A stretch of DNA of 64,000 bases from an uncultured Spirochaetota bacterium (GCA_942493035.1 OW818666.1:4294874-4358873); one strand, 5' to 3'. Shown: positions 39,498 through 63,953, numbered from the stretch's first letter. Notes: generated by a model not told the origin, from the letters alone. Translations and numbers: made by a program.

Positions 39498-40160
39498 CTA
39501 AAACCGCACGTCCTGTGCGGTTTTAGAAAGAAAAAATTTACACTTTTTATTCAATACACATTTATAACATAAAGGATTTCTATTACAAATCAATCTAGTA
39601 ACATCTAATAGACCATAATTATAATCTCTGAATTTTCTCAGTGGTGTTAAACTATCTGATAAATCAGCAAACCATTTTTTTCTTATTGTTTCACCATCCG
39701 TATTAAACCCAAAAAATCTACCATACAAGCGAACTATGTTGCTATCAATTATATATTCACGCTTGTTTAAATGTAGTGATAAAAAAGCTGAAGCAACGTA
39801 CTCTCCTACACATGGTAATTTTAAAAGTTCTATTTTTGAATCGGGTATTTCTTTTAAAGTATTTAATTGTTCGCATAACTTTAAAAATCGTTCATACCTC
39901 CAATTTAGGCCAAGAGTAAGGAAAATATTTTTAGGTGAATCAATAAATTGTTGTGAGGCATTATATTTTTTTATAAAATCAATGTATACTGGTAAAACCT
40001 GATCAGCATTAGTTCGTTGTAATAGAATCTCTGCAGTAAGTGCATGAAACTTATTTTTTGTATTTCTCCATTCAAACGAAGTATAAAATTTTTTTCCTGC
40101 AAGTATTATTTTATTTTGAAAATACAGAATATCTTTCTTGTCCAATTTAAAATCTGTCAT
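39498..40160 (-). CDS. HhH-GPD superfamily DNA glycosylase-like protein with C-terminal 4-Cys cluster
   Basis: HhH motif LLKLPCVGEYVASAFL and cluster CX6CX2CX5C (Nth/MutY-like [4Fe-4S]). Confidence 0.6.
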   Translation of the reverse strand: MTDFKLDKKDILYFQNKIILAGKKFYTSFEWRNTKNKFHALTAEILLQRTNADQVLPVYIDFIKKYNASQQFIDSPKNIFLTLGLNWRYERFLKLCEQLNTLKEIPDSKIELLKLPCVGEYVASAFLSLHLNKREYIIDSNIVRLYGRFFGFNTDGETIRKKWFADLSDSLTPLRKFRDYNYGLLDVTRLICNRNPLCYKCVLNKKCKFFLSKTAQDVRF

Positions 40161-44863: not shown

Positions 44864-44870
44864 AATTGCC

Positions 44871-47355: not shown

Positions 47356-47422
47356 GACGTTGGGCAATGCACTTAAAGTTTGTCCCTGTTGAGTCAAGGA
47401 CGACGAAACAGGTTGTAAAAGT

Positions 47423-48101: not shown

Positions 48102-48195
48102 ATTGCAAATATATGTCCTATTAGATAGGGTGTCAAGCAAAAAGTTTCATTAAAAAACCGGGCAGGACGCCCGGCCTTAATTTTTTGCCCAATGT

Positions 48196-48301
48196 CATAT
48201 AACGTCTTGCTTAAACGACGTTTGCCAGTTTCACGGTAAATTTTGTATTGAACGAGTTTACCCAACACAAAAAATATTTGCCACTGAAAGTTGGCAAATG
48301 T
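48196..48301 (-). repeat. attC 3' half split by IS21 copy A
   Basis: CATATAACGTCTTGCTTAAACGACGTTTGCC...GCCACTGAAAGTTGGCAAATGTG; the other half lies at 56511-56567. Confidence 0.7.
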
Positions 48302-48476
48302 GCGTATTCCGGCCCAAACCTGCCACTCATTCCGGAAAATGCCTGCCACCTGTTCCGGTGCAAAGTTGCCACCCATTCCGGTTGAAACCTGCCACTTTTA
48401 GGATTTTACCGGAATAAAAAACAAACCATTTCCTTTTAAAACAGAGCCTGATTAATCTGATAAAAAATCAAATCAG

Positions 48477-50054
48477 ATGGAGTTACCGGGCATGTCACAA
48501 AGGAGAATATCGATGAAAAAAATCAGAGAAATCATGCGTCTTCACGAGCAGTCAAAACTTAGTCAGAGACAGATATCCCAAGCCCTTGGAATGTCTCGTC
48601 CGGTCGTCAGCGATTATATTAACAAGGTTAAAACATTCGGATTAACTTTTATTGATATAGAAAATATGCCGGATGAAACGCTTCTAAATATTCTACAGGG
48701 AAATAAAACAGCAGACAATAAACGACATGAAATACTTCAAAAACAATTCCTTCATTTCACGCAGGAGCTAAAACGTCTCGGAGTGACTCGCCAAACTTTG
48801 TGGGAAGAATACATAGAGGAAAATCCAGACGGATACAGTTACTCGCAGTTTTGTTATCATTTTCAGATCTGGCAGAATATGTCAGAGATTACAATGCACA
48901 TTGAACATAAAGCGGGCGACAAACTCTTTGTGGATTTTGCCGGTAAGAAACTTGCCATAACAGACCGGACGACAGGAGAGATAAGAGAGGTTGAAGTTTT
49001 TGTAGCAATCCTGGGAGCAAGCCAGCTTGTCTATGTAGAAGCTTCAATGAGCCAGAAGAAGGAGGAATGGATAAGACTAAATGAAAATGCATTAAGATAC
49101 ATCGATGGTGTTCCACTGGCTATTGTGCCAGACTGCTTAAAATCGGCAGTAACAAAAACAGACAGATACGAACCGGATATCAATCCGGAGTATCTTGATT
49201 TTGCCAGACATTACGGCACAACAATACTTCCTGCACGACCTGCAAAACCGAAAGACAAAGCTCTGGTTGAAGGAGCTGTACGAATTTCATATTCATGGAT
49301 TTACGCCAAGCTTCGTGACCGTGTATTCTTTTCACTTGAAGAACTCAACGCTGCGATCATGGAGTTGCTTGAATCATTCAATTCCCGGACAATGCAGCGA
49401 CCTGGTGTAAGTCGACGGGAACTTTTTGACAGCATTGAAAAGAGTGAACTGCAGCCTCTTCCAGAGGATCTTTATGAAATCAAGAAGTTTAAAATCCTCA
49501 CAGTTCAATTTAACTATCATATCTATCTGAGTGATGACAGTCATTACTACAGTGTGCCATATCGCTATAAAGGGCGGAAAGTAGAAGTACTTTTCACAGA
49601 AAGAGCCGTAGAAGTCTATTGTGGCAACGTAAGAGTCGCCTCACATTTTAGAAACAGGAGAAAAAACGGATACACAACACAAAGGAATCATATGCCGGAA
49701 TCACACAAATGGGAGGATAATTGGAACCCGGAAAAACTGACCAATATTGCAAAACTAAAAGGCGATGCTGTGGTAACTGTAATTGAAATAGTTCTCTCCT
49801 CCCGGCAGCATCCTGAGCAGAGTTATAAAACATGCCTCGGAATATTTGCCCTAACTAAAACATATGGAGAAATCCGACTTAACCGTGCTTGTGAATTGGC
49901 TCTCTACTATGAAAACTGCACATACAAGATGATTAAAAATATTCTAAGCAACAACATGGATCAAGCAGGTGAAGAAGATAAAGACTCGGAATTCACCCTA
50001 CCTGAACATGATAACATAAGAGGCAATCAATATTACATGGAGGAATTACAATGA
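48477..50054 (+). CDS. istA: IS21-family transposase IstA
   Basis: 525 aa; HTH N-terminus, integrase core. Confidence 0.85.
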   Translation: MELPGMSQRRISMKKIREIMRLHEQSKLSQRQISQALGMSRPVVSDYINKVKTFGLTFIDIENMPDETLLNILQGNKTADNKRHEILQKQFLHFTQELKRLGVTRQTLWEEYIEENPDGYSYSQFCYHFQIWQNMSEITMHIEHKAGDKLFVDFAGKKLAITDRTTGEIREVEVFVAILGASQLVYVEASMSQKKEEWIRLNENALRYIDGVPLAIVPDCLKSAVTKTDRYEPDINPEYLDFARHYGTTILPARPAKPKDKALVEGAVRISYSWIYAKLRDRVFFSLEELNAAIMELLESFNSRTMQRPGVSRRELFDSIEKSELQPLPEDLYEIKKFKILTVQFNYHIYLSDDSHYYSVPYRYKGRKVEVLFTERAVEVYCGNVRVASHFRNRRKNGYTTQRNHMPESHKWEDNWNPEKLTNIAKLKGDAVVTVIEIVLSSRQHPEQSYKTCLGIFALTKTYGEIRLNRACELALYYENCTYKMIKNILSNNMDQAGEEDKDSEFTLPEHDNIRGNQYYMEELQ

Positions 50055-50809
50055 ACAATCAGGGAACGATTGAAAAGATGCAGGAAATGCGTCTTCACGG
50101 AATGCTCAGTTCATTCCGTGAAACATTCTCTACAGATATGAAAAACAAGTTTACGGTTGATGAAATGGTCGCTCATCTCATCGATGCTGAATGGGATGAA
50201 AGGTATAACAGGAAATTTAAAACTCTGCTTAAAAATGCAGCCTTTAGATATAAGGCAAGTGTTGAAGAGATAGATTTCAAACCATCACGAAAAATTGACA
50301 GAAATCTGATACTCAGATTCTCGACATGTGACTGGATCAAAAAAGGAGAGAGCATTATCATCACCGGTTCTACAGGTGCAGGTAAAAGTTTTATGGCCTG
50401 CGCACTTGGTCATAAAGCATGTATTCTTCGTTATCAGGTTGGATACTACAACTGCTTGAAATTGTTTTCACATCTGAAGTACTGTAAAGTTGATGGATCA
50501 TATTTTAAAGAGATGAATAAAATTAAAAAACTGGATTTGATAATTCTTGATGACTTCGGATTAAAGCCTTTTGATTCAGACTCGCGGTTAATGTTACTTG
50601 AGATGCTTGAAGATCGCCACGGCAGCAGATCGATAATTATTAGTTCTCAAATTCCTACAGATAAGTGGTTTGATCTTATTGGGGATGCGACTATTGCGGA
50701 TGCAATCTGTGATAGACTTCTTCATACTTCACATAAAATAGACATTAAAGGAGATTCTATGAGAAAGGAAAAATCAAAAAATTCTGGACGAAACCTGCCA
50801 CTTGAGTAA
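50051..50809 (+). CDS. istB: IS21-family helper ATPase IstB
   Basis: Walker A motif GSTGAGKSF, 252 aa. Confidence 0.85.
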   Translation: MNNQGTIEKMQEMRLHGMLSSFRETFSTDMKNKFTVDEMVAHLIDAEWDERYNRKFKTLLKNAAFRYKASVEEIDFKPSRKIDRNLILRFSTCDWIKKGESIIITGSTGAGKSFMACALGHKACILRYQVGYYNCLKLFSHLKYCKVDGSYFKEMNKIKKLDLIILDDFGLKPFDSDSRLMLLEMLEDRHGSRSIIISSQIPTDKWFDLIGDATIADAICDRLLHTSHKIDIKGDSMRKEKSKNSGRNLPLE

Positions 50810-51094
50810 TGGTTAGTTCGAAAATGGAAATGGATTAAAAGTGGTAAACTTAAAACCGGAATAGGTGGCAGGTTTCACCGGAATACGTAATTTTACCAGA
50901 TAATTTAATAAAACGTCGCGATGAATTGTTAAATTTAAAAAAAACATTATTAGGTGAATCGACTCAGAAAAATAAAACCACAGATTAAAAGTACATCCGT
51001 GTACTTTTAAAAATTTATAGTAATAAACGCCAAAAACATCGTACAACAAAGGCTAACAGCAGCGCCGGAGTACCGGCTTGGGCTTCGCCACATT

Positions 51095-52928
51095 GTGTGT
51101 CACGCAAGGAGTATAGAAGATGAAGGAGGGCCCTTCGGAGCCGGTATACAGGTACAGGCTTCAAACCGCCTTAAGCTGCATTGGTAAAGAGCTATTGTGG
51201 TGAGCGTTAAGGAAAAGGCGTGATAAACACGTCAGGTGCGTTACACGGAGACAAACGCAAGTGAATCATTGATGAGGTGTCGAAAGAGCCTACAGTTGAA
51301 GTCAAAACCGGGGTACAATGTGGATTTCGGGATAAATCTGAGAGAAACCTGTCTACTGCTCAGGTGGCTTCCGGCATAAAGATGGTGTGACTGTGTAACA
51401 GGCTTTTATATTCAACGTGAGAACCTGTCGTTTTGATGTTAAGGGAGAACTTCAAGCGGAGGCCCCGCGAGAAAGAGAGTACCGAAGCAAAGCACAGGGG
51501 CGGAGTGGTTCGTAGTAGTGAAGAAGTCTCTGTAATGGAGATGGAGCGAAGGAATCACGTTGTTCAGCTTTAAAGATTGATCAACCGGAAAACGGGAGGA
51601 GTTGATTGGATAAAGCAAAACCGTATTATATTTCCAAACATAATGTCTGGGAAAGCTACAAACAGGTAAAAGCAAACAGGGGTGCTCCCGGCGTTGATGG
51701 CGTAAATCTGGCAGATTTTGAGGCAGAATTGAAAAATAATCTGTATAAAATCTGGAACCGGATGTCATCTGGAAGTTATGTACCTTCTCCTGTGCGTCGG
51801 GTTGAGATACCGAAAAGCGATGGGAAAACCCGGACACTCGGGATTCCCACAGTGTCTGACCGGATAGCGCAGATGGTAGTCAAACGTGAGCTCGAACCGG
51901 TATTGGAAAAAGTATTTCATCACAGCTCTTACGGATATCGCCCGATGCGGTCTGCAAAAGATGCTGTTGCAAGTGCCCGTAAAAACTGCTGGAAATACGA
52001 CTGGGTGTTAGACATCGACATTAAAGGATTTTTCGATAATATCGATCATGACCTCATGATGAAAGCAGTACGTCGGCATACAGAAAGCGGATGGGTTAGA
52101 CTGTACATAGAGCGATGGCTGAAAGCACCCGTTATGACAACTGAAGAAGGCCTTCAGCAACGAACACAGGGAACACCTCAGGGCGGAGTGATAAGCCCGC
52201 TTCTTGCAAATCTGTTTCTTCATTATGCATTTGATGTCTGGATGGGGAAAAATTATCCGTCAGTATCTTTTGAAAGATATGCGGATGACTGTATCTGTCA
52301 CTGCCGCACTGAAGATGAGGCAGTCAGGCTGAAGGAAGCGCTGGAAAAGAGAATGGCTGAATGCAGGCTCGAACTCCATCCGGAAAAGACAAAGATAGTA
52401 TATTGTAGAGATGACGCAAGAAAGGGCAGCTACCCGGTAGAATGCTTTGATTTTCTGGGTTTTACATTTAAAGCACGAAGGTCAAAGACGAAGCATGGGA
52501 AATATTTTATCAACTTCAGTCCAGCGGCGAGTGATAAGGCATTGAAGAACATGAGAATAACCATGAAAGCGTGGAATGTTCATCAGCGAAGCAGAGAATC
52601 ACTTGAGGAATTATCCTGTAGGTTCAATGCGAAAATCAGAGGATGGATCAACTATTATGGGAGTTTTTACAGATCAGCGATGTACCCGACTTTACGTAAT
52701 TTTGATTTAATTCTTTCGAGATGGGCAATGAAGAAATATAAACGTTTAAGAAATCACAAACGGAGAGCCAGGCACTGGATAGAACGTATTGCGATGAAAG
52801 AGCCGTGTTTATTTTCGCATTGGAGAATTCTTTACGGTAACGGTTGAACAACAAGAGCCGGATGAATCGAGAGATTCACGTCCGGTTCCGTGAGAGCGTA
52901 GAGGGGAGGTTCCTCTGCGCCACTCGAC
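51095..52928 (+). mobile_element. group II intron, copy 2
   Basis: Identical to copy 1. Confidence 0.85.
51606..52847 (+). CDS. group II intron RT/maturase
   Basis: Identical 413-aa ORF. Confidence 0.9.
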   Translation: MDKAKPYYISKHNVWESYKQVKANRGAPGVDGVNLADFEAELKNNLYKIWNRMSSGSYVPSPVRRVEIPKSDGKTRTLGIPTVSDRIAQMVVKRELEPVLEKVFHHSSYGYRPMRSAKDAVASARKNCWKYDWVLDIDIKGFFDNIDHDLMMKAVRRHTESGWVRLYIERWLKAPVMTTEEGLQQRTQGTPQGGVISPLLANLFLHYAFDVWMGKNYPSVSFERYADDCICHCRTEDEAVRLKEALEKRMAECRLELHPEKTKIVYCRDDARKGSYPVECFDFLGFTFKARRSKTKHGKYFINFSPAASDKALKNMRITMKAWNVHQRSRESLEELSCRFNAKIRGWINYYGSFYRSAMYPTLRNFDLILSRWAMKKYKRLRNHKRRARHWIERIAMKEPCLFSHWRILYGNG

Positions 52929-53092
52929 AGCAACCTAATGTGGCTGAATACTTTTTGTTTTGGGCAAACTGATTTTTAAAAAAAATGAGTTGTTAAACTC
53001 GCTAACGTCAGTTAGCCAAGACGTTATATGTAATGGCAACAAAATTTAAGACCGGGCGTCCATGCCCGGAGAGAAAAGAGGAAATTAATCCT

Positions 53093-53806
53093 ATGAATAA
53101 AATTATAACAGTCGCATTTATTCTATTATTCTTTTCAAAAAGCTATTCTGCAGATAAACACTTATTGATATTTAAACCAATTGAAAACTTGAAATATAAA
53201 ATACAGATTCAGCCTGCTCCAGAATCAGTAATATTAAATAAACTTTTTGGTGCGTATTCTTCCAATAGCATTTTTAAGATGTCTATCAAGGAAAATGATA
53301 AAAATACTTACAAAGTAACATCTTCCTTGATAATATTTAATAAATCAAGCTGTTGTAATCCACTAACTTATCCTGGTTATTTTATTACAACAGATAGAGA
53401 AATTGAAAATATCATAAGCCCTACCGGAGAATTTATTGATAATAGTAATGACTATCTATCAATGGGATGCATATTTGGCTTTAACATTTTAAAACTCAAT
53501 AATAAAGAGAAAAACATTAAACCAGTGATAATTCCTTTTTATTTCCCTGATAAAGAAATTTCAATTGGTGAATCATGGACCTGTAAATTTGAATTTGATG
53601 ATAATGTAAATGCTAACCCATTGTTCATTGATTATACAATAAAAAAAGTATCTGATAATATTGCATATATAGATGGTTACAGTTTAGATAGATTACATAT
53701 CACTGCACAATTTAATATTACAAAAGGTTGTTGGACTAACTATAAGATGTTCGTCAAAAAAGATTCAGAAGAATATTTATTTAAAAGTTTTGAGTTAATA
53801 GAATAG
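53093..53806 (+). CDS. secreted/lipoprotein-like cassette protein
   Basis: Signal peptide MNKIITVAFILLFFSKSYSA; identical to 60970-61683 on the opposite strand; the ORF-track N-terminal extension is translation of the upstream hairpin. Confidence 0.6.
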   Translation: MNKIITVAFILLFFSKSYSADKHLLIFKPIENLKYKIQIQPAPESVILNKLFGAYSSNSIFKMSIKENDKNTYKVTSSLIIFNKSSCCNPLTYPGYFITTDREIENIISPTGEFIDNSNDYLSMGCIFGFNILKLNNKEKNIKPVIIPFYFPDKEISIGESWTCKFEFDDNVNANPLFIDYTIKKVSDNIAYIDGYSLDRLHITAQFNITKGCWTNYKMFVKKDSEEYLFKSFELIE

Positions 53807-53924
53807 GCACAATGCCTTCGCCCATCCGTGGGCTACGGCAGACCGAACTTTGTGTAAATGTTGCCACTACATATAACAAAGGCTAACAGCGGCGCCGGAG
53901 TACCGGCTTGGGCTTCGCCACATT

Positions 53925-55758
53925 GTGTGTCACGCAAGGAGTATAGAAGATGAAGGAGGGCCCTTCGGAGCCGGTATACAGGTACAGGCTTCAAACCGCC
54001 TTAAGCTGCATTGGTAAAGAGCTATTGTGGTGAGCGTTAAGGAAAAGGCGTGATAAACACGTCAGGTGCGTTACACGGAGACAAACGCAAGTGAATCATT
54101 GATGAGGTGTCGAAAGAGCCTACAGTTGAAGTCAAAACCGGGGTACAATGTGGATTTCGGGATAAATCTGAGAGAAACCTGTCTACTGCTCAGGTGGCTT
54201 CCGGCATAAAGATGGTGTGACTGTGTAACAGGCTTTTATATTCAACGTGAGAACCTGTCGTTTTGATGTTAAGGGAGAACTTCAAGCGGAGGCCCCGCGA
54301 GAAAGAGAGTACCGAAGCAAAGCACAGGGGCGGAGTGGTTCGTAGTAGTGAAGAAGTCTCTGTAATGGAGATGGAGCGAAGGAATCACGTTGTTCAGCTT
54401 TAAAGATTGATCAACCGGAAAACGGGAGGAGTTGATTGGATAAAGCAAAACCGTATTATATTTCCAAACATAATGTCTGGGAAAGCTACAAACAGGTAAA
54501 AGCAAACAGGGGTGCTCCCGGCGTTGATGGCGTAAATCTGGCAGATTTTGAGGCAGAATTGAAAAATAATCTGTATAAAATCTGGAACCGGATGTCATCT
54601 GGAAGTTATGTACCTTCTCCTGTGCGTCGGGTTGAGATACCGAAAAGCGATGGGAAAACCCGGACACTCGGGATTCCCACAGTGTCTGACCGGATAGCGC
54701 AGATGGTAGTCAAACGTGAGCTCGAACCGGTATTGGAAAAAGTATTTCATCACAGCTCTTACGGATATCGCCCGATGCGGTCTGCAAAAGATGCTGTTGC
54801 AAGTGCCCGTAAAAACTGCTGGAAATACGACTGGGTGTTAGACATCGACATTAAAGGATTTTTCGATAATATCGATCATGACCTCATGATGAAAGCAGTA
54901 CGTCGGCATACAGAAAGCGGATGGGTTAGACTGTACATAGAGCGATGGCTGAAAGCACCCGTTATGACAACTGAAGAAGGCCTTCAGCAACGAACACAGG
55001 GAACACCTCAGGGCGGAGTGATAAGCCCGCTTCTTGCAAATCTGTTTCTTCATTATGCATTTGATGTCTGGATGGGGAAAAATTATCCGTCAGTATCTTT
55101 TGAAAGATATGCGGATGACTGTATCTGTCACTGCCGCACTGAAGATGAGGCAGTCAGGCTGAAGGAAGCGCTGGAAAAGAGAATGGCTGAATGCAGGCTC
55201 GAACTCCATCCGGAAAAGACAAAGATAGTATATTGTAGAGATGACGCAAGAAAGGGCAGCTACCCGGTAGAATGCTTTGATCTTCTGGGTTTTACATTTA
55301 AAGCACGAAGGTCAAAGACGAAGCATGGGAAATATTTTATCAACTTCAGTCCAGCGGCGAGTGATAAGGCATTGAAGAACATGAGAATAACCATGAAAGC
55401 GTGGAATGTTCATCAGCGAAGCAGAGAATCACTTGAGGAATTATCCTGTAGGTTCAATGCGAAAATCAGAGGATGGATCAACTATTATGGGAGTTTTTAC
55501 AGATCAGCGATGTACCCGACTTTACGTAATTTTGATTTAATTCTTTCGAGATGGGCAATGAAGAAATATAAACGTTTAAGAAATCACAAACGGAGAGCCA
55601 GGCACTGGATAGAACGTATTGCGATGAAAGAGCCGTGTTTATTTTCGCATTGGAGAATTCTTTACGGTAACGGTTGAACAACAAGAGCCGGATGAATCGA
55701 GAGATTCACGTCCGGTTCCGTGAGAGCGTAGAGGGGAGGTTCCTCTGCGCCACTCGAC
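53925..55758 (+). mobile_element. group II intron, copy 3
   Basis: Identical except for one substitution (F to L in the RT). Confidence 0.85.
54436..55677 (+). CDS. group II intron RT/maturase
   Basis: 413 aa. Confidence 0.9.
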   Translation: MDKAKPYYISKHNVWESYKQVKANRGAPGVDGVNLADFEAELKNNLYKIWNRMSSGSYVPSPVRRVEIPKSDGKTRTLGIPTVSDRIAQMVVKRELEPVLEKVFHHSSYGYRPMRSAKDAVASARKNCWKYDWVLDIDIKGFFDNIDHDLMMKAVRRHTESGWVRLYIERWLKAPVMTTEEGLQQRTQGTPQGGVISPLLANLFLHYAFDVWMGKNYPSVSFERYADDCICHCRTEDEAVRLKEALEKRMAECRLELHPEKTKIVYCRDDARKGSYPVECFDLLGFTFKARRSKTKHGKYFINFSPAASDKALKNMRITMKAWNVHQRSRESLEELSCRFNAKIRGWINYYGSFYRSAMYPTLRNFDLILSRWAMKKYKRLRNHKRRARHWIERIAMKEPCLFSHWRILYGNG

Positions 55759-55861
55759 GCGCAAAAGGCCGCGCAACGTCGGGTAAGCAAGACGTTATGT
55801 GCCATTTTTTTTCTTGACTTTACACATAGAATTGTGTAAATTATTCAGAGAGGTTATTTAT

Positions 55862-56059
55862 ATGGCTACTAATTTAAATATCGATATGAAACTGTTAGAT
55901 GAAGTTTATCAAATAGGAAATTTCAAAACAAAAAAAGAAGCAGTAAACGTCGCGCTTAAGGAATATATTCAGAAACATAGACAAAAAGACATTTTGAAAT
56001 ATCTAAATGCTGTTGATTTTGATAAAGACTATGATTACAAAAAAGCTCGAAATAGATGA
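55862..56059 (+). CDS. VapB-like antitoxin
   Basis: Small ORF (MATNLNIDMKLLDEV...) with stop/start overlap with the PIN gene. Confidence 0.55.
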   Translation: MATNLNIDMKLLDEVYQIGNFKTKKEAVNVALKEYIQKHRQKDILKYLNAVDFDKDYDYKKARNR

Positions 56060-56493
56060 CAAGATTCATTATAGATACATCCGTATGGTCAGAAGCACTT
56101 CGACGAAAGAAGAAAACTGTAAATTCGTCAGATACTATTGTTAGAAAGATTATAGAAAATGATGATGAAATTGTTGTTGTAGGCATTATCCTTCAAGAAA
56201 TTCTAACTAGCATTGCAGATGAAAAACTGTTTAGAGAAATTAAAGATATCCTGGATGATTTTTTATATTTAGATATTACAAAAAATGATTTCATTTACGC
56301 TTCCGAGTTAAATAATAAATGCAGATCTAAAGGAATTAATGCTGGATCAATTGATTTTTTAATTGCAAGCGTTGCCATCAGAAACGAACTAGAATTGGTC
56401 ACTTTCGACAAAGACTTTTTTAATATTAGCAAGTATACAGATTTAAAAATTTTAGACGTAGGCCGTTTCCTTGATAATAAAACTGAAAATTAA
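56056..56493 (+). CDS. vapC: PIN-domain toxin VapC
   Basis: IIDTSVW...TFDKDF PIN motifs. Confidence 0.75.
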   Translation: MTRFIIDTSVWSEALRRKKKTVNSSDTIVRKIIENDDEIVVVGIILQEILTSIADEKLFREIKDILDDFLYLDITKNDFIYASELNNKCRSKGINAGSIDFLIASVAIRNELELVTFDKDFFNISKYTDLKILDVGRFLDNKTEN

Positions 56494-56510
56494 ACCGAAA
56501 AAAAACGGCA

Positions 56511-56567
56511 CATAACAAAGCTTAAACGCAGCGCTCGGAGTACCTCGCTTGGTCTGCGCCACATTTA
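56511..56567 (+). repeat. attC 5' half split by IS21 copy B
   Basis: CATAACAAAGCTTAAACGCAGCGCTCGGAGTACCTCGCTTGGTCTGCGCCACATTTA. Confidence 0.7.
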
Positions 56568-56645
56568 CGTATTCCGGTGAAACCTGCCACCTATTCCGGT
56601 TTTAAGTTTACCACTTTTAATCCATTTCCATTTTCGAACTAACCA

Positions 56646-57404
56646 TTACTCAAGTGGCAGGTTTCGTCCAGAATTTTTTGATTTTTCCTTTCTCATAGAA
56701 TCTCCTTTAATGTCTATTTTATGTGAAGTATGAAGAAGTCTATCACAGATTGCATCCGCAATAGTCGCATCCCCAATAAGATCAAACCACTTATCTGTAG
56801 GAATTTGAGAACTAATAATTATCGATCTGCTGCCGTGGCGATCTTCAAGCATCTCAAGTAACATTAACCGCGAGTCTGAATCAAAAGGCTTTAATCCGAA
56901 GTCATCAAGAATTATCAAATCCAGTTTTTTAATTTTATTCATCTCTTTAAAATATGATCCATCAACTTTACAGTACTTCAGATGTGAAAACAATTTCAAG
57001 CAGTTGTAGTATCCAACCTGATAACGAAGAATACATGCTTTATGACCAAGTGCGCAGGCCATAAAACTTTTACCTGCACCTGTAGAACCGGTGATGATAA
57101 TGCTCTCTCCTTTTTTGATCCAGTCACATGTCGAGAATCTGAGTATCAGATTTCTGTCAATTTTTCGTGATGGTTTGAAATCTATCTCTTCAACACTTGC
57201 CTTATATCTAAAGGCTGCATTTTTAAGCAGAGTTTTAAATTTCCTGTTATACCTTTCATCCCATTCAGCATCGATGAGATGAGCGACCATTTCATCAACC
57301 GTAAACTTGTTTTTCATATCTGTAGAGAATGTTTCACGGAATGAACTGAGCATTCCGTGAAGACGCATTTCCTGCATCTTTTCAATCGTTCCCTGATTGT
57401 TCAT
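56646..57404 (-). CDS. istB: IstB ATPase
   Basis: Identical to 50051-50809. Confidence 0.85.
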   Translation of the reverse strand: MNNQGTIEKMQEMRLHGMLSSFRETFSTDMKNKFTVDEMVAHLIDAEWDERYNRKFKTLLKNAAFRYKASVEEIDFKPSRKIDRNLILRFSTCDWIKKGESIIITGSTGAGKSFMACALGHKACILRYQVGYYNCLKLFSHLKYCKVDGSYFKEMNKIKKLDLIILDDFGLKPFDSDSRLMLLEMLEDRHGSRSIIISSQIPTDKWFDLIGDATIADAICDRLLHTSHKIDIKGDSMRKEKSKNSGRNLPLE

Positions 57405-58978
57405 TGTAATTCCTCCATGTAATATTGATTGCCTCTTATGTTATCATGTTCAGGTAGGGTGAATTCCGAGTCTTTATCTTCTTCACCTGCTTGATCCATG
57501 TTGTTGCTTAGAATATTTTTAATCATCTTGTATGTGCAGTTTTCATAGTAGAGAGCCAATTCACAAGCACGGTTAAGTCGGATTTCTCCATATGTTTTAG
57601 TTAGGGCAAATATTCCGAGGCATGTTTTATAACTCTGCTCAGGATGCTGCCGGGAGGAGAGAACTATTTCAATTACAGTTACCACAGCATCGCCTTTTAG
57701 TTTTGCAATATTGGTCAGTTTTTCCGGGTTCCAATTATCCTCCCATTTGTGTGATTCCGGCATATGATTCCTTTGTGTTGTGTATCCGTTTTTTCTCCTG
57801 TTTCTAAAATGTGAGGCGACTCTTACGTTGCCACAATAGACTTCTACGGCTCTTTCTGTGAAAAGTACTTCTACTTTCCGCCCTTTATAGCGATATGGCA
57901 CACTGTAGTAATGACTGTCATCACTCAGATAGATATGATAGTTAAATTGAACTGTGAGGATTTTAAACTTCTTGATTTCATAAAGATCCTCTGGAAGAGG
58001 CTGCAGTTCACTCTTTTCAATGCTGTCAAAAAGTTCCCGTCGACTTACACCAGGTCGCTGCATTGTCCGGGAATTGAATGATTCAAGCAACTCCATGATC
58101 GCAGCGTTGAGTTCTTCAAGTGAAAAGAATACACGGTCACGAAGCTTGGCGTAAATCCATGAATATGAAATTCGTACAGCTCCTTCAACCAGAGCTTTGT
58201 CTTTCGGTTTTGCAGGTCGTGCAGGAAGTATTGTTGTGCCGTAATGTCTGGCAAAATCAAGATACTCCGGATTGATATCCGGTTCGTATCTGTCTGTTTT
58301 TGTTACTGCCGATTTTAAGCAGTCTGGCACAATAGCCAGTGGAACACCATCGATGTATCTTAATGCATTTTCATTTAGTCTTATCCATTCCTCCTTCTTC
58401 TGGCTCATTGAAGCTTCTACATAGACAAGCTGGCTTGCTCCCAGGATTGCTACAAAAACTTCAACCTCTCTTATCTCTCCTGTCGTCCGGTCTGTTATGG
58501 CAAGTTTCTTACCGGCAAAATCCACAAAGAGTTTGTCGCCCGCTTTATGTTCAATGTGCATTGTAATCTCTGACATATTCTGCCAGATCTGAAAATGATA
58601 ACAAAACTGCGAGTAACTGTATCCGTCTGGATTTTCCTCTATGTATTCTTCCCACAAAGTTTGGCGAGTCACTCCGAGACGTTTTAGCTCCTGCGTGAAA
58701 TGAAGGAATTGTTTTTGAAGTATTTCATGTCGTTTATTGTCTGCTGTTTTATTTCCCTGTAGAATATTTAGAAGCGTTTCATCCGGCATATTTTCTATAT
58801 CAATAAAAGTTAATCCGAATGTTTTAACCTTGTTAATATAATCGCTGACGACCGGACGAGACATTCCAAGGGCTTGGGATATCTGTCTCTGACTAAGTTT
58901 TGACTGCTCGTGAAGACGCATGATTTCTCTGATTTTTTTCATCGATATTCTCCTTTGTGACATGCCCGGTAACTCCAT
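57401..58978 (-). CDS. istA: IstA transposase
   Basis: Identical to 48477-50054. Confidence 0.85.
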   Translation of the reverse strand: MELPGMSQRRISMKKIREIMRLHEQSKLSQRQISQALGMSRPVVSDYINKVKTFGLTFIDIENMPDETLLNILQGNKTADNKRHEILQKQFLHFTQELKRLGVTRQTLWEEYIEENPDGYSYSQFCYHFQIWQNMSEITMHIEHKAGDKLFVDFAGKKLAITDRTTGEIREVEVFVAILGASQLVYVEASMSQKKEEWIRLNENALRYIDGVPLAIVPDCLKSAVTKTDRYEPDINPEYLDFARHYGTTILPARPAKPKDKALVEGAVRISYSWIYAKLRDRVFFSLEELNAAIMELLESFNSRTMQRPGVSRRELFDSIEKSELQPLPEDLYEIKKFKILTVQFNYHIYLSDDSHYYSVPYRYKGRKVEVLFTERAVEVYCGNVRVASHFRNRRKNGYTTQRNHMPESHKWEDNWNPEKLTNIAKLKGDAVVTVIEIVLSSRQHPEQSYKTCLGIFALTKTYGEIRLNRACELALYYENCTYKMIKNILSNNMDQAGEEDKDSEFTLPEHDNIRGNQYYMEELQ

Positions 58979-59069
58979 CTGATTTGATTTTTTATCAGAT
59001 TAATCAGGCTCTGTTTTAAAAGGAAATGGTTTGTTTTTTATTCCGGTAAAATCCTAAAAGTGGCAGGTT

Positions 59070-59435
59070 TCAACCGGAATGGGTGGCAACTTTGCACCGG
59101 AACAGGTGGCAGGCATTTTCCGGAATGAGTGGCAGGTTTGGGCCGGAATACGCAAAAATATAGATTTGGAATAAAACTTCAGCTATTGAGGCTAACATTA
59201 TTCTTATGTGTTTACTTTCCCATTTATCATAAGAATTTTCATGAACTTTCGAACTTGTTAATTCTTGAATGGTAATGAGTGTATCAAAATACAATGGATC
59301 AACATTGGAGAATATTTTTTTTAAAGCTTTTATTCTTGCATTATAGTCAGAACCATCAGCATTATGTTTATGTGCGAGTTCATATATTATTTTCCTGATA
59401 CAAACAGAGCTACCTGTTAAAAAATTATTTTTCAA
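59070..59435 (-). pseudogene. cassette ORF with its 3' end fused to or interrupted by the IS21 copy B terminus
   Basis: The last 25 codons or so are read from the IS21 end sequence. Confidence 0.5.
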
Positions 59436-59504
59436 ACAGCCTTCGGCTTCAAAAAATAATTCTCTTAATGATTTCGGAATGTTTTCATCTAAGACAAAGC
59501 TTGA

Positions 59505-59816
59505 TTATGGGATTGATAAAAAAATATATTTATCTAAGTCTGAAATAACCTCGTGATGTTTAGCTAATTGTGTCGCTGTAAATTTTCCATTTATATTAAA
59601 TGGTATAATCTTATCTGAAAAATGGATTGAAATTTTATTACATGAATCACATTGAATCTGATATAAATGACATTCTTTTTCATTAGTCCAATCAAATGTA
59701 AATTCATCAAGAAAAGAAAATTGAACATGCCTTCTTTTACAAAAAGGACAATTGTAGGTATGAGAATCAATAAAATACTTATTATCCAAGTTACTTTGAT
59801 CATATGTTTTTTTCAT
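59505..59816 (-). CDS. Cys-rich (CxxC...CxxC) small cassette protein
   Basis: 103 aa with CPFC...CDSC; in the same cassette as 59070-59435, with no attC between them. Confidence 0.5.
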   Translation of the reverse strand: MKKTYDQSNLDNKYFIDSHTYNCPFCKRRHVQFSFLDEFTFDWTNEKECHLYQIQCDSCNKISIHFSDKIIPFNINGKFTATQLAKHHEVISDLDKYIFLSIP

Positions 59817-59882
59817 AGTAATAATTCCTTATATTGAGCCATGGATGGCGAATCTTTTTTTAAAAGTTAAGCCAAAAATGTC

Positions 59883-59981
59883 GTACAACGTCTTGCTTAC
59901 CCGACGTCGCGCGGCCTTTTGCGCGATGTGGCGAAGCCCAAGTGAGGTACTCCGAACGCCGCGGGTAAGCTTTGTTATATG
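59883..59981 (-). repeat. attC-like site (type GCTTACCCG)
   Basis: GTACAACGTCTTGCTTACCCGACGTCGCGCGGCCTTTTGCGCGATGTGGCGAAGCCCAAGTGAGGTACTCCGAACGCCGCGGGTAAGCTTTGTTATAT. Confidence 0.75.
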
Positions 59982-60066
59982 ATGCGACGTGCGTTGATAA
60001 AAAAAGGAATTAAAAAAAAGGCATAGTTTACCTACTATGCCTTCAGAAATAGTTCAATGGGTAAGG

Positions 60067-60639
60067 TTATTTTAATTTTATAGCAATTTTCTTTTCAATT
60101 TGAGCATCAGTATATTTAGGGAATGATTTTTTAAAATTTGATATATCCACTATGGAATTGTCTGCAATATCGATTCTAGTTAAATACACCCTCGTCCCCT
60201 TATCAACTTTCTGATTAGTAAGATATGCAGTGAGCTGACCTATGTAATTTATTTTATTTTCATCTATGGTAAACTTATAGCCGTACATTGCTTTGTTGAT
60301 ATCACTTAAATTTGAAAAGTAAACTGGACCAGCTCCACTATGTAATTGTACTGAATCAAGAATGTATTCACCTTTTGGTAAATATAAGTATTGGGTATTA
60401 CCTGATAAACTGTTCCGATAATAATATGATATATTAGTTTCAGTATTTTTAATCCAAATAGTCATAGGTACTTTTGAAAAACTATTATCCCAAGAGTTTG
60501 AAAATTGGAACACTAAAATTCCAATTCCATTATTATCCTGAAGTGTGTCACTGCTTTTTAAAACATGCGGTGCAGAGCTACAGCCTATTAAAAACAAAAG
60601 CATAAGTATTGAAATAAAATAAATTTGAATTTTTTTCAC
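60067..60639 (-). CDS. lipoprotein (GTG start)
   Basis: Signal peptide with lipobox LIGCSS. Confidence 0.6.
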   Translation of the reverse strand: MKKIQIYFISILMLLFLIGCSSAPHVLKSSDTLQDNNGIGILVFQFSNSWDNSFSKVPMTIWIKNTETNISYYYRNSLSGNTQYLYLPKGEYILDSVQLHSGAGPVYFSNLSDINKAMYGYKFTIDENKINYIGQLTAYLTNQKVDKGTRVYLTRIDIADNSIVDISNFKKSFPKYTDAQIEKKIAIKLK

Positions 60640-60750
60640 GAATAGACCTCTTTTTTAAATTTTTCATAAGTATTCATTTTTTCGTATATGTCAATTACTA
60701 TTTTATAGCGTACTGTTTTTTATGGATATAGAAAGTTAAGCACGTCGTTT

Positions 60751-60906
60751 CATATAACGTCTTGGCTAACTGACGATAGCGAGTTTTACAACTAATTTTT
60801 TTTAAAATCAGTTTGCCAGGTACTAAAAGTATTCAGCCACATTAGGTTGCTAATGTGGCGAAGCCCAAGCCGGTACTCCGGCGCCGCTGTTAGCCTTTGT
60901 TATATG
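60751..60906 (-). repeat. attC-like site (type GGCTAAC)
   Basis: CATATAACGTCTTGGCTAACTGACGATAGCGAG...GCCACATTAGGTTGCTAATGTGGCGAAGCCCAAGCCGGTACTCCGGCGCCGCTGTTAGCCTTTGTTATAT. Confidence 0.75.
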
Positions 60907-60969
60907 TAGTGGCAACATTTACACAAAGTTCGGTCTGCCGTAGCCCACGGATGGGCGAAGGCATTGTGC

Positions 60970-61683
60970 CTATTCTATTAACTCAAAACTTTTAAATAAA
61001 TATTCTTCTGAATCTTTTTTGACGAACATCTTATAGTTAGTCCAACAACCTTTTGTAATATTAAATTGTGCAGTGATATGTAATCTATCTAAACTGTAAC
61101 CATCTATATATGCAATATTATCAGATACTTTTTTTATTGTATAATCAATGAACAATGGGTTAGCATTTACATTATCATCAAATTCAAATTTACAGGTCCA
61201 TGATTCACCAATTGAAATTTCTTTATCAGGGAAATAAAAAGGAATTATCACTGGTTTAATGTTTTTCTCTTTATTATTGAGTTTTAAAATGTTAAAGCCA
61301 AATATGCATCCCATTGATAGATAGTCATTACTATTATCAATAAATTCTCCGGTAGGGCTTATGATATTTTCAATTTCTCTATCTGTTGTAATAAAATAAC
61401 CAGGATAAGTTAGTGGATTACAACAGCTTGATTTATTAAATATTATCAAGGAAGATGTTACTTTGTAAGTATTTTTATCATTTTCCTTGATAGACATCTT
61501 AAAAATGCTATTGGAAGAATACGCACCAAAAAGTTTATTTAATATTACTGATTCTGGAGCAGGCTGAATCTGTATTTTATATTTCAAGTTTTCAATTGGT
61601 TTAAATATCAATAAGTGTTTATCTGCAGAATAGCTTTTTGAAAAGAATAATAGAATAAATGCGACTGTTATAATTTTATTCAT
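60970..61683 (-). CDS. secreted/lipoprotein-like cassette protein (duplicate of 53093-53806)
   Basis: Identical amino-acid sequence; start placed at MNKII after the RBS. Confidence 0.6.
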   Translation of the reverse strand: MNKIITVAFILLFFSKSYSADKHLLIFKPIENLKYKIQIQPAPESVILNKLFGAYSSNSIFKMSIKENDKNTYKVTSSLIIFNKSSCCNPLTYPGYFITTDREIENIISPTGEFIDNSNDYLSMGCIFGFNILKLNNKEKNIKPVIIPFYFPDKEISIGESWTCKFEFDDNVNANPLFIDYTIKKVSDNIAYIDGYSLDRLHITAQFNITKGCWTNYKMFVKKDSEEYLFKSFELIE

Positions 61684-61745
61684 AGGATTAATTTCCTCTT
61701 TTCTCTCCGGGCATGGACGCCCGGTCTTAAATTTTGTTGCCATTA

Positions 61746-61903
61746 CATATAACGTCTTGCTTATACGACGCTTGCCAAGTTTACTGGAAATTTTATATTC
61801 TATAAGTTTATACAAATCAAGTAGTTTTTTGCCACGACAAGTGGCAAGTGTGGCGAAGCCCAAGCGAGGTACTCCGAGCGCAGCGTATAAGCTTTGTTAT
61901 ATG
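61746..61903 (-). repeat. attC-like site (type GCTTATACG)
   Basis: CATATAACGTCTTGCTTATACGACGCTTGCC...GTGGCGAAGCCCAAGCGAGGTACTCCGAGCGCAGCGTATAAGCTTTGTTATAT. Confidence 0.75.
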
Positions 61904-61940
61904 GCGTAGCAAAAAATTGCAGAATCAATTTTCAATAAAA

Positions 61941-62315
61941 CTATAAGTATTTTTCTTCTTTACTTAAAAGCGAATTTAATTTTTTATCAAGTGACCAAAT
62001 CGGAGCATTTATTTTTCTTGCAGTAACAATTATAAAACTATCAATTATTCCAACACCAATAGAAGTGAGTTTATTTATCGAAGAATATTTACCTGCTTCA
62101 ATCCATCCATTTTCAATAATTGCTTTTGGAAGATTTTCCCAGTATAGTGAAATAATTTCTATTTCACGTTTGCTTTTTGCTCCTTGAAGTAATTCTCCAA
62201 AAATGCACTCGATAGCTAATACTTTTCGATTTTCCAACAAATCTTTAACTTTAGAATAGTATTCTGGTTTATTTTTCAAGAATTCAATCCAGATTGAGGT
62301 ATCAAGAATTATCAT
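61941..62315 (-). CDS. vapC: PIN-domain toxin VapC
   Basis: MIILDTSIWIEF...; overlaps the antitoxin gene by 4 bp. Confidence 0.75.
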   Translation of the reverse strand: MIILDTSIWIEFLKNKPEYYSKVKDLLENRKVLAIECIFGELLQGAKSKREIEIISLYWENLPKAIIENGWIEAGKYSSINKLTSIGVGIIDSFIIVTARKINAPIWSLDKKLNSLLSKEEKYL

Positions 62316-62527
62316 CTTTTCCTATTAACTTCACGTACTTTAGCAGCAGAGAAATCTTTTGAAAACTGCAATGGTTTCTTTGATATTTCATCGTTTAAGG
62401 CATGAACTTTTTTTAAAGAAAGCCATTCTTCTAGTGCAGTCACGAGACTTTCGGTAAGGTTTTTCCCACCTGCGAAATGTTTTACATCATTGACTAGTTC
62501 ATCTGGTATAAGTGCTGTTACTTTCAT
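62312..62527 (-). CDS. VapB-like antitoxin
   Basis: 71-aa ORF upstream of and coupled to the PIN gene. Confidence 0.6.
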   Translation of the reverse strand: MKVTALIPDELVNDVKHFAGGKNLTESLVTALEEWLSLKKVHALNDEISKKPLQFSKDFSAAKVREVNRKR

Positions 62528-62604
62528 GATGTAAATATACGATATTTTATCGTATATGTCAAGAGGAAATTTAAGTTTTATGGCAGATTGTTTTTTTTGC
62601 TATG

Positions 62605-62763
62605 CCATATAACGTCTTGGCTAACTGACGTTAGCGAGTTTTACAACCTATTTTTTTTAAAATCTTTTTGCCACGTACTAAAAGTGTTCAGCCACATTAG
62701 GTTGCTAATGTGGCCTCTGGCCCAAGCCGGTACTCCGGCGCCGCTGTTAGCCTTTGTTATATG
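62605..62763 (-). repeat. attC-like site (type GGCTAAC)
   Basis: R''/R' pair CATATAAC...GTTATATG flanking GGCTAAC...GTTAGCC. Confidence 0.75.
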
Positions 62764-62832
62764 ATGCGACGTGCCTTCACGCAAAGTTTTGATGGGTTAA
62801 TACACGGATGTATTAACCCAATACAAATAATT

Positions 62833-63363
62833 TTATCTTACTAAATAACCTTTATCAAACTGCTCTTTACATAAATCATCAATAAATAGTTGAGCTTGAG
62901 ACTTAAATTTATTTAATTGAATCGTATTTATATAAAAATTATAAGTATTGATTTCATTGAATGATATATCAACATCAGTAGAATTAATTTTTACTTTAAA
63001 ATTAAAATAAGTCTTAATTGGTGCAAATGAATATCTCACGTAAATAAAACTAAAAGCTGATATTTCATATAATTCTTCATCTATAATAATTTTATCAATC
63101 ATGTTTTCGGATGGATTTTTATACTTTTTATTGAAATATGATTCCATTGAATCATCAAATGATGATATTTCATAAGAAAAATTATGCTTCTTCAGTAAAA
63201 CTGGAATTTGATTTTTTAATTCTAAAAATACAGCTTCATTATTCTTAGCAATATTAATTTTATATGAAACACTGTAATTTGCTTCATCTTTTGTTAAAGA
63301 AATACATGATGTAAAAAAGAATGCAAAAATAATCACTAAATATTTTCTCATATATAAATTCAT
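62833..63363 (-). CDS. lipoprotein-like cassette protein
   Basis: Start placed at MNLYMRKYLVIIFAFFFTSC; the upstream part of the listed ORF is hairpin translation. Confidence 0.55.
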   Translation of the reverse strand: MNLYMRKYLVIIFAFFFTSCISLTKDEANYSVSYKINIAKNNEAVFLELKNQIPVLLKKHNFSYEISSFDDSMESYFNKKYKNPSENMIDKIIIDEELYEISAFSFIYVRYSFAPIKTYFNFKVKINSTDVDISFNEINTYNFYINTIQLNKFKSQAQLFIDDLCKEQFDKGYLVR

Positions 63364-63412
63364 CCTCTCCGCGCACGGACGCGCGGTCTTTAAAAGTTTG
63401 GGCACGTCGTTT

Positions 63413-63568
63413 CATATAACGTCTTGGCTAAACGACGTTTGCCAAGTTTACTAAAAATTTTATACTGAATGAGTTTATACAAATCAAGAAGTTTTTGCCA
63501 CGATTAAGTGGCAAATGTGGCGAAGCCCAAGCCGGTACTCCGGCGCCGCGTTTAGCCTTTGTTATATG
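63413..63568 (-). repeat. attC-like site
   Basis: CATATAACGTCTTGGCTAAACGACGTTTGCCAAG...GTGGCGAAGCCCAAGCCGGTACTCCGGCGCCGCGTTTAGCCTTTGTTATAT. Confidence 0.75.
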
Positions 63569-63632
63569 AAGTGACGTGCCTTACATATAAAGTTTGTCGA
63601 GTACACGGACGTACGAGACTGCTGATAATCGG

Positions 63633-63953
63633 TTATTCATACTTTCCGTAAGGTAAATTATGAAGTTCATCCCAAAAACTATTTGGGTAAATAATTCCAG
63701 TTTTTAAAAATTCTTTATAATCATTGATTCCATTTTTTAATAATGTACTATTATTATCATTAACGGATGTATGGAAACCAAGAATGTTTGCAATAACTTC
63801 AAGATCGTCAGGCGTATATGGGTGATTAAAAGTACCATCATTTTTGATTTTTTCTTTGATATCTTGTTGATAACCAATTGTCATTAAACCAAATTTATTT
63901 ATTAAACCCCAGAGAGTTGATGAATAATCATATTTAGTAAAATTGAAATACAA
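63633..63953 (-). CDS. hypothetical cassette protein
   Basis: 106-aa ORF at the window edge. Confidence 0.45.
   Translation of the reverse strand: MYFNFTKYDYSSTLWGLINKFGLMTIGYQQDIKEKIKNDGTFNHPYTPDDLEVIANILGFHTSVNDNNSTLLKNGINDYKEFLKTGIIYPNSFWDELHNLPYGKYE

Follow-up and report, generated by a model that had tools for sequence, protein, structure and literature searches.

Why do unrelated gene cassettes of one array carry, at their 5' ends, GC-rich hairpins with the same loop, and does such a hairpin belong to the gene behind it or to the site at which the cassette recombines? The question is raised by a stretch of 64,000 nt from an uncultured Spirochaetota bacterium (GCA_942493035.1, OW818666.1:4294874-4358873; here called the window), in which the segment from ~32.5 kb to 64 kb is the distal portion of a chromosomal gene-cassette array. 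A reading made without database searches (here called the sequence-only reading) had noted four hairpins between the R' box of an attC recombination site and a ribosome-binding site and had taken them for a cassette-borne regulatory RNA structure (e.g., an attenuator, a translational switch, or an insulating terminator). The answer came from the architecture of the hairpin, the covariation of its stem, its rules of strand and position, the co-inheritance of a second hairpin, and its independence from cargo and expression signals. The 5' hairpin (H5) is one member of a strand-specific pair, completed by a hairpin at the cassette 3' end (H3), at the foot of a long attC stem. This pairing and placement would make H5 a component of the recombination module and most likely neither a gene-specific riboregulator nor a switch for the downstream gene.

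The array is built of tandem units, each an open reading frame (ORF) plus a palindrome, with AAC/GTT core triplets and pairing R and L boxes, as in an integron cassette array. In cassette orientation, the repeats show the attC layout (R'' ATAAC-AAAG, L'' GCTAAACG ... L' CGTTTAGC, CAAGAC-GTTAT R'). Seven attC sites are intact in the window; their L boxes pair perfectly, and their asymmetry resides in a 3 x 5 nt central spacer and in a fixed A.C at position 8. The majority of the cassettes lie on the minus strand, and their cargo is of the kinds common in cassettes (PIN/VapBC, RelE/HigBA, an EcoRII-C nuclease, lipoproteins, and unknowns). The nearest relatives of these attC sites are in Spirochaetota metagenome-assembled genomes from groundwater and anaerobic digesters, not in Treponema denticola. 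We collected 152 related loci by a pattern for the attC 3' end that did not include the hairpin; the related cassette arrays surveyed amounted to 782 kb and yielded 224 unique attC sites. Redundancy was removed by exact sequence only, and the loci came from related environments and metagenomes. A 933-bp duplicate in the window (52992-53924 and 60852-61784) is a single cassette behind two different attC sites (...CAGTTAGCC and ...CGTATAAGC, each followed by AAGACGTTAT). Sequence identity begins within AAGACGTTAT, i.e., the mobile cassette is bounded at G|TT.

All four hairpins first noted (61707-61724, 53052-53069, 63369-63386, and 48158-48174; Table 1) are present in the window; the sequence-only reading gave their letters in cassette orientation. 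They begin 21 to 26 nt past the R' box (...AAGACGTTAT) of the preceding attC, and each of them forms in the minimum-free-energy fold. They precede unrelated cargoes (a lipoprotein-like gene, a DUF6263-like gene and its duplicate, and a RelE/HigB-HigA pair), and the duplicated cassette carries its hairpin behind both attC sites, which bears out the idea that the hairpin travels with the cassette. It lies outside the canonical R''-L''...L'-R' and folds on itself; it was correctly set apart from the attC consensus and is not formed by the L'/L'' arms of the attC fold. The claim that GGAGAG follows directly agrees with the copies at 61707/53052 and 63369, where AGAG comes directly after the hairpin, but not with 48158, where TTTTTT and then a TTGACA-17-TATATT promoter follow.

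Chance occurrence of the hairpin is excluded. In 252 kb (i.e., the window and related loci), the motif of loop core plus stem occurred 84 times, while 20 shuffled versions contained 3 to 12 occurrences. Among the 224 unique attC contexts, H5 was found in 78 of 206 downstream flanks (38%), with its closing base 29 to 42 nt after GTT (mode, 32), and reverse-oriented hairpins were found in none of the 206 downstream or 210 upstream flanks. The shared loop core that had been recognized in the window holds across the related arrays as C-[A/G/T]-TCC-[N or nothing]-T-G, essentially an invariant C-R-TCC-(N)-T-G on the top strand and C-A-(N)-GGA-Y-G on the bottom strand. The N is missing from ~20% of the loops, and about half of the loops are UCCG on the top strand (UNCG type), closed by A-U.

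The check proposed in the sequence-only reading, an alignment of cassette 5' regions, revealed compensatory stem changes around a conserved loop. With the first two stem pairs being part of the hairpin selection criterion and the pentaloop copies aligned with an N placeholder in the loop, 85.7% of the H5 stem cells were paired (59.2% after shuffling), and the covariation score was 0.573 (shuffled, 0.162; reached by none of 500 shuffles; slid controls did not exceed 0.136). One-sided (G.U) changes are nearly absent, there being almost no G.U in ~500 pair cells of the H5 and H3 stems; the stems vary freely provided that Watson-Crick pairing holds. This is the evolutionary regime of attC itself, in which the structure is preserved, only a few bases are fixed, and wobble pairs hardly occur.

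The hairpin is also retained in homologous cassettes. Homologues of the DUF6263-like cargo with 55 to 56% amino acid identity, one in a 4.27-Mb genome (L153) and one in a JGI contig (L155), carry it in the same place, with different stems and the same loop core (window, CCGGGC-GTCCAT-GCCCGG; L155, CGGCC-GTCCGT-GGCCG; L153, CGGCC-ATCCGT-GGCCG), and both H5 and H3 are kept there with altered stems. The hairpin is likewise retained in homologues of the HigBA cassette (~90% identity). The cargo of 40 H5-bearing cassettes belongs to 36 unrelated families; hairpin-bearing cassettes are longer and non-toxin-antitoxin (non-TA). No association was found between attC length class and the hairpin, and strong copies first filed as "other" nearly all follow divergent attC variants. 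Significant covariance-model matches in the window, where all copies except 48158, 39504, and 50985 had served in the training sets, fell only in the array and only on the cassette strand. In the 32 kb of the window outside the array, the best match had an E value of 0.17 with both strands scoring alike, i.e., there was no convincing copy, and the sequence examined contained no instance of the element outside cassette arrays. Other conserved noncoding cassette parts occur without a TCC-loop hairpin, namely, a leader family with GCCGGAGACATCGGTA (L025 1573, L030 6450, and L012 3430) and ORF-less cassettes of 172 nt (L034 3754-3925 and 5074-5245) and of ~260 nt (L029 1008-1267 and L051 97-360), which recur in several metagenomes.

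H3, the twin of H5, has the same loop core on the same strand and was found in 76 of 210 upstream flanks, in the cassette 3' untranslated region (UTR). Its closing base lies 39 to 46 nt before the AAC of R'' (mode, 43), and it typically starts ~10 to 25 nt past the stop codon. It is usually bipartite, with a 5-bp outer stem, a pyrimidine-rich symmetric internal loop of 2 to 3 nt, a 3-bp inner stem, and the loop. Its stem covaries as well (92.2% paired versus 50.1% shuffled; score, 1.008 versus 0.19; 0 of 500 shuffles as high). The outer stem, which was unused in selecting the sequences, has 87.5% of its cells paired, with all four Watson-Crick types represented. The two hairpins occur together within cassettes (both, 27; H5 only, 13; H3 only, 5; neither, 48; odds ratio, 19.9; p = 6e-9), and an H5 and an H3 on either side of one attC in the array were not associated (odds ratio, 1.46; p = 0.22). 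Within one cassette, the stems of H5 and H3 are unrelated, and their loop variants agreed in 3 of 27 cases, i.e., no match.

The position of the hairpin is set by attC rather than by the gene or its expression signals. Its spacing varies less relative to attC than relative to the ORF, and the polarity of the hairpin tracks attC even where the cargo runs the other way (window 39473-42229; L060). At 39504, the cassette genes (39498-40696) are on the opposite strand; the hairpin keeps its attC polarity and would act as their terminator. In 11 of 40 cases, H5 precedes the sigma-70 promoter of its cassette, which places it outside the mRNA made from that promoter, and whether a cassette has a promoter showed no association with H5 (odds ratio, 0.96). 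In promoter-less cassettes, H5 ends 17 to 30 nt before the start codon, and the Shine-Dalgarno (SD) sequence is normally 5 to 15 nt past the stem, not within it. With respect to the copy at 39504, the hairpin 39498-39526 was also noted as a bidirectional terminator for the reverse-oriented EcoRII-C/HhH gene pair. The final seven codons (...AQDVRF*) of the 220-amino-acid (aa) ORF 39498-40160 on the minus strand run through this hairpin, and the listed C terminus may be an accident of the palindrome.

The apparent spacer that separates R' from the hairpin consists in part of further attC stem. Across 93 unique cassettes, the first 16 nt after GTT are mostly Watson-Crick complementary to the last 16 nt before AAC of the same cassette (82 to 91 of 93 at most positions; 48 at position 7, 78 at position 12, and 76 at position 16). 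Over the first 22 positions, the mean pairing was 15.3 between a cassette's own two flanks, 8.6 with the array neighbor, and 8.2 for random pairs. Since the extension joins the cassette's own 5' start to its own 3' flank, it exists only in the excised, circular cassette, where the 16 nt past GTT make the attC stem much longer than the canonical site. Position 5 of the extended stem is an invariant G-C. In 91 of the 93 cassettes, position 8 opposes A to C on the top strand, which corresponds to a G.T wobble on the bottom one; this asymmetry would favor folding of the bottom strand.

Folds of circular junctions gave the order H3, single-stranded linker, long stem, single-stranded linker, and H5. 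In a family with ~75 nt of own-own complementarity (...CCCCATGCCCC...), the hairpins are ~100 nt from the core sites and still at the foot of the stem. Both linkers carry an AACTT(T) box on the same strand, ~17 to 30 nt after GTT and ~20 to 35 nt before AAC (e.g., 63387-63401 and 62775-62792 in the window). The box is present in 55% of leaders with H5 and 28% of those without H5, and in 50% of tails with H3 and 25% of those without H3 (background, 5% in each case). The boxes are not target-site duplications (own-own similarity, 8.5; cross-cassette, 8.2; interior control, 8.4), and a pairing of the two linkers with each other was supported neither by the per-position counts (positions 17 to 30) nor by the folds. 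A cassette family with a long stem (L001 5024-5146, L030, L013, L034, L060, L096, L110, and L125) has a leader of ~100 nt (...TTGAAAAAATAAAATCCCCATGCCCC...AAGAA), the reverse complement of which is in the tails; it has an extended stem of ~75 nt with H5 and H3 at its foot, and its cargo includes defense-type genes. In L008 (minus strand, ~5790-5880 of the reverse complement), a degenerate H3 (loop CATTCGTG), CACAAAACTTATTGTAATC, and H5 (GCCCATCCGTGGGC) follow one another directly, with no attC between them; this reflects either a deletion of attC or an attC-less junction.

We tentatively favor, with somewhat less than even confidence, the reading that H5 and H3 are an accessory single-stranded DNA (ssDNA) element of the recombination module that some cassettes use as a terminator. 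It is taken to be accessory in view of the ~60% of the cassettes that lack it. The noncoding part of the excised circle forms one contiguous unit, consisting of H3, a linker often with AACTT, the attC stem (canonical R/L boxes and at least 16 further base pairs), a second linker, and H5. Like attC itself, the pair would be read in the recombination cycle as folded ssDNA, probably that of the bottom strand, and may define the forked foot of the attC stem and insulate it from the cargo. The conserved loop would be the recognition point for a trans-acting factor, and the copies with a T-run (48158 and 39504) may have been co-opted as intrinsic terminators that insulate a promoter-bearing or reverse-oriented cassette.

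The first candidate to suggest itself for such a factor is in the linked tyrosine recombinase. This gene is absent from the window; in seven related loci, the array begins 100 to 300 nt after the stop codon of the co-oriented recombinase gene. The best solved relative of its product is VchIntIA (the Vibrio integron integrase; 2a3v), to which it aligns in two blocks, with residues 185 to 236 being skipped; the ~52-aa IntI-specific insertion is missing. No adjacent IntI with the IntI-specific domain was found in the related loci. The recombinase scores under the TIGR02249 integron-integrase cut-off and over that of the XerA/"integron integrase" model, and it belongs to a large family that is mostly annotated as XerD. 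Its extra N-terminal region of ~90 aa gave near-threshold HARP matches in four diverged members, all below the Pfam cut-off. HARP is a fork-binding domain of annealing helicases. A HARP-like N-terminal domain, in a recombinase that lacks the insertion with which IntI reads extrahelical bases, could be what reads the loop.

Several points weigh against this reading. Cassettes without hairpins make up ~60% of the total, and the hairpins therefore cannot be required for recombination. We considered whether hairpin-less cassettes compensate with a GC-rich stem foot, and the difference was in the wrong direction (4.1 versus 4.8 GC pairs; p = 0.09). Counts of G.T and A.C in the hairpin stems showed no asymmetry and hence no strand preference. 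Loops of the UNCG family, including UCCG, are specially stable in RNA and not in DNA. The placement is like that of mRNA ends, with H3 just past stop codons and H5 shortly before the start codons of promoter-less cassettes. The assignment to DNA rather than RNA is drawn from sequence patterns, and the link between the hairpin loop and the N-terminal domain of the recombinase, whose HARP matches are below the Pfam cut-off, is a guess. Lastly, because the sequences are from related metagenomes, the counts are not fully independent.

The same evidence makes it possible, if somewhat doubtful, that H5 and H3 are RNA boundary elements that bracket the cargo on read-through transcripts and protect the processed 5' and 3' ends of the mRNA; they would also keep the SD sequence from pairing with the attC arm, terminate transcription where a U-run is present, and bind an RNA-binding protein through the loop. 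Conservation of the loop on the sense strand only, insulation-like T-run copies of H5 in front of some promoters, and the longer, non-TA character of hairpin-bearing cassettes speak for this possibility, which accounts for the tight bracketing of the ORF, the UCCG loops, and the co-occurrence of H5 and H3 around one cargo equally well as a recombination role does. It is less successful with the hairpin polarity locked to attC instead of cargo direction, the 11 of 40 H5 copies outside the cassette's own transcript, and the scarcity of G.U pairs. Furthermore, most copies have no U-run, the distance to attC is the tighter one, and there is no match to an Rfam family: at gathering and E-value thresholds, Rfam models detected only group II intron domains in the window, and an E-value scan of 59400-64000 gave nothing credible.

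It is unlikely that the hairpins mark the joining of cargo to a pre-made attC "chassis" (e.g., by a hairpin-guided nuclease or transposase or by copy-choice), in which case they would be the working ends of a second, nested mobility layer in which cargo is loaded into, or exchanged between, such chassis. The bracketing of 36 cargo families in 40 cassettes by both hairpins, with the attC side conserved, fits this scenario, and the arrangement of two hairpins on one strand, each bordered externally by a short conserved box of single-stranded sequence, resembles the end geometry of IS200/IS605. No HUH transposase or other candidate gene was found among the window ORFs or beside the recombinase, and with their freely varying stems, the hairpins do not behave as IS200/IS605 ends or as ends of repetitive extragenic palindromic (REP) elements mobilized by RAYT. 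The AACTT boxes are not target-site duplications, the H5 and H3 stems of one cassette are unrelated, and cassettes under 420 nt included no empty chassis with H5 next to H3. If true, this scenario would bear on the unsolved origin of integron cassettes. Under a less radical reading, the hairpins are arm-type sites of a distinct integron-like recombinase class with a HARP-like N terminus and no IntI insertion.

The two forms of regulation offered in the sequence-only reading are both very improbable as general explanations. A gene-specific attenuator or translational switch in the cargo 5' UTR would suit the copy at 63369, the last two stem bases of which fall within GGAGAGGA (two G of GGAGAGG) 11 nt from the ATG, and that at 61707, which ends 23 nt before its ATG. 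Most copies leave the SD sequence outside the stem; it is farther downstream, or a promoter intervenes. There is no conserved alternative pairing and no Rfam match. Promoters, reversed genes, and 36 unrelated cargo families all have this hairpin in front of them, in a position and polarity set by attC, and it has a twin at the 3' end. As for a plain intrinsic terminator, sense or antisense, the copies at 48158 and 39504 have the T-run in the sense direction, and a terminator consensus scan scored 48158, 53069, and 61707 as terminator-like, in each case only in the antisense direction. The tail in that direction (TCTTAAATTT) is interrupted, only ~7 of 40 H5 copies have at least five T in the next 8 nt, and a plain terminator would need neither an invariant loop nor a fixed distance to attC. 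Thus, the notion of an insulating terminator survives for a minority of the copies (in the window, 48158 and 39504) and not for the majority. Least probable of all are CsrA/Rsm-binding hairpins on antisense RNA: the Rsm/CsrA consensus is (A/U)CANGGANG(U/A) (PMC6849547), and the bottom-strand loop C-A-N-GGA-Y-G of hexaloop copies matches it exactly (e.g., window 61712-61719). On the sense strand, however, the loop reads UCC; nearly all cargo genes are encoded on the strand that does not carry the GGA loop, and antisense promoters or transcripts are not known. Furthermore, ~20% of the loops lack the N, and the flanking pair in H5 is more often G-C than A-U. The match is an unexplained coincidence with a low probability of function because it is antisense to the cargo.

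Table 1. Hairpins, attC sites, and associated features (coordinates of the window, except for the recombinase gene)
Feature	Position	Strand	Context
H5 CCGCGC-GTCCGT-GCGCGG	63369..63386	-	5' end of cassette with lipoprotein-like ORF 62833-63351; 17 nt to ATG
H5 CCGGGC-GTCCAT-GCCCGG	61707..61724	-	5' end of cassette with DUF6263-like secreted ORF 60970-61683; 23 nt to ATG
H5 of duplicate cassette copy	53052..53069	+	Inside IS21-bounded inverted segment; different attC in front
H5 CCGGGC-GTCCT-GCCCGG	48158..48174	-	HigB/HigA cassette (RelE/HigB-HigA pair 47423-48101); T6 next; terminator-like in both directions
Promoter of HigBA cassette, TTGACA-17-TATATT	48108..48136	-	Downstream of H5 48158
Extra H5 CCGCAC-GTCCT-GTGCGG = CCGCACGTCCTGTGCGG	39498..39526 with AAAA/TTTT extension (core 39504-39520)	+	
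Weak H5 GCC-ATCCAT-GGC = GCCATCCATGGC	59838..59849	-	Upstream of ORF 59505-59816
H3, loop ATCCGT, 11-bp stem	62793..62820	-	3' UTR of ORF 62833-63351; twin of H5 63369-63386
H3 bipartite TGCC-TTC-GCC-CATCCGTG-GGC-TAC-GGCA	60936..60963	-	3' UTR of ORF 60970-61683; twin of H5 61707-61724
H3 of duplicate cassette copy	53813..53840	+	
H3 GTA-CGTCCGTG-TAC, outer GTC/GAC	63601..63614	-	Cassette with ORF 63633-63953
H3 CCTGTT-TC-GT-CGTCCTTG-AC-TC-AACAGG	47385..47412	-	HigBA cassette; twin of H5 48158-48174
H3 TTAAAAGTA-CATCCGTG-TACTTTTAA	50985..51010	+	Upstream of intron-interrupted attC at 51043
3' arm of extended stem (ATATGAAACGACGTGC), first 16 nt past GTT	63402..63417	-	Pairs with 62759-62774, same cassette
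5' arm of extended stem (GCACGTCGCATCATAT)	62759..62774	-	Directly upstream of R'' of the cassette's own attC
3' arm, cassette 60970-61683 (ATATGTAATGGCAACA)	61735..61750	-	Pairs with 60902-60917
5' arm, cassette 60970-61683 (GTTGCCACTACATAT)	60902..60917	-	
attC (R'' ATAACAAAG ... R' AAGACGTTAT)	63416..63565	-	5' of 63369 hairpin
attC	62609..62760	-	Of cassette 62833-63351
attC	61749..61900	-	5' of 61707 hairpin
attC	60754..60903	-	Of cassette 60970-61683
Tyrosine recombinase	L005 3361-4518	-	Next to rnpA-yidD-yidC; also in L139, L090, L001, L085, L002/L041, and L150

The array in the window is interrupted by inverted pairs of insertion sequence (IS) copies and by three group II introns. The IS elements resemble the IS21, IS110, IS30, IS3, and IS4 families by ORF translation, the family calls having been made without a profile search. 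The inverted pairs, likewise judged from ORF translations alone, are IS21-like (48301-50890 and 56565-59154; 525 + 252 aa), IS110-like (42229-43764 and 45816-47351; 400 aa; inserted in attC), and IS30-like (34740-35854 and 43755-44869; 347 aa). Because of these inverted pairs, some cassettes, including the one with the hairpin copy at 53052, are on the plus strand. The three introns (37550-39383, 51095-52928, and 53925-55758; plus strand) are near-identical, with a 413-aa reverse transcriptase and Rfam matches to D1-D4 and D5-D6. They sit within attC after ...GCCACATT, oriented like the cassettes, and not at the TCC-loop hairpins, which are therefore not target hairpins of group IIC introns. 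The copy at 53925-55758 has the 5' half of a long-type attC on one side and the 3' half of a short-type attC on the other, with mismatched L boxes, which suggests recombination between intron copies.

Sites of the attC type are usually described as self-contained hairpins with 7-bp core sites that are read by IntI via extrahelical bases. The cassettes studied here share with integrons the tandem arrangement between imperfect palindromes, R''(..AAC)-L''...L'-R'(GTT..), a crossover compatible with G|TT (the boundary of the duplicated cassette falls there), the conservation of structure with a variable sequence, and a recombinase nearest to VchIntIA beside the array in related loci. This lineage of spirochaetes and anaerobic digesters departs from that description with a larger module, two flanking hairpins with invariant loops, and a recombinase with a different extra domain. 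The hairpin lies outside R''-R' and hence is not part of the canonical attC, the stem of the excised cassette, with its fixed A.C/G.T position, continues beyond the crossover for 16 bp or more, and the two extra hairpins flank the stem foot. The recombinase is without the IntI insertion, carries an additional domain at its N terminus, and is encoded in the same direction as the cassettes.

Accessory elements at a fixed distance and polarity, which the N-terminal domain of the recombinase could read, recall by analogy the arm-type sites of lambda attP; here, however, they are folded hairpins with covarying stems rather than duplex repeats, and they are optional (~40% of the cassettes). Like REP elements, bacterial interspersed mosaic elements, and mRNA-stabilizing 3' hairpins, the pair is GC-rich and located in intercistronic regions or 3' UTRs, and some copies act as terminators or insulators. 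REP elements conserve their stem sequence and a 5' GTAG, whereas the stem varies here, the loop is invariant, and the position is locked to attC. The bottom-strand loop and its closing pair fit the consensus of CsrA/RsmE hairpins but are antisense to the cargo. The DUF1874 motif, which is structured, occurs in consecutive intergenic regions, and is suspected to be an unusual attC-like ssDNA element (Weinberg et al. 2017, PMC5737381), has a multistem structure, while the present element is a simple hairpin pair around a recognizable attC and had no Rfam match in the window.

No description of the hairpin was found in the searchable literature on Treponema/Spirochaetes integrons, cassette stem-loops and terminators, and structured motifs, and a plasmid BLAST search of the module for clinical cassettes with a Spirochaetes-type attC gave no match. 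We regard the well-defined accessory motif and the enlarged attC architecture, in a variant integron-like system, as new. Action on RNA would make the hairpins the first conserved elements of cassettes that mark transcript boundaries. The motif serves as a search key for this cassette family in metagenomes and gives a precise, testable handle on it. If the hairpins are accessory recognition sites, they would represent a new way of setting polarity and efficiency in ssDNA recombination, and detectors based on current knowledge of attC and IntI would mis-delimit or miss arrays of this kind.

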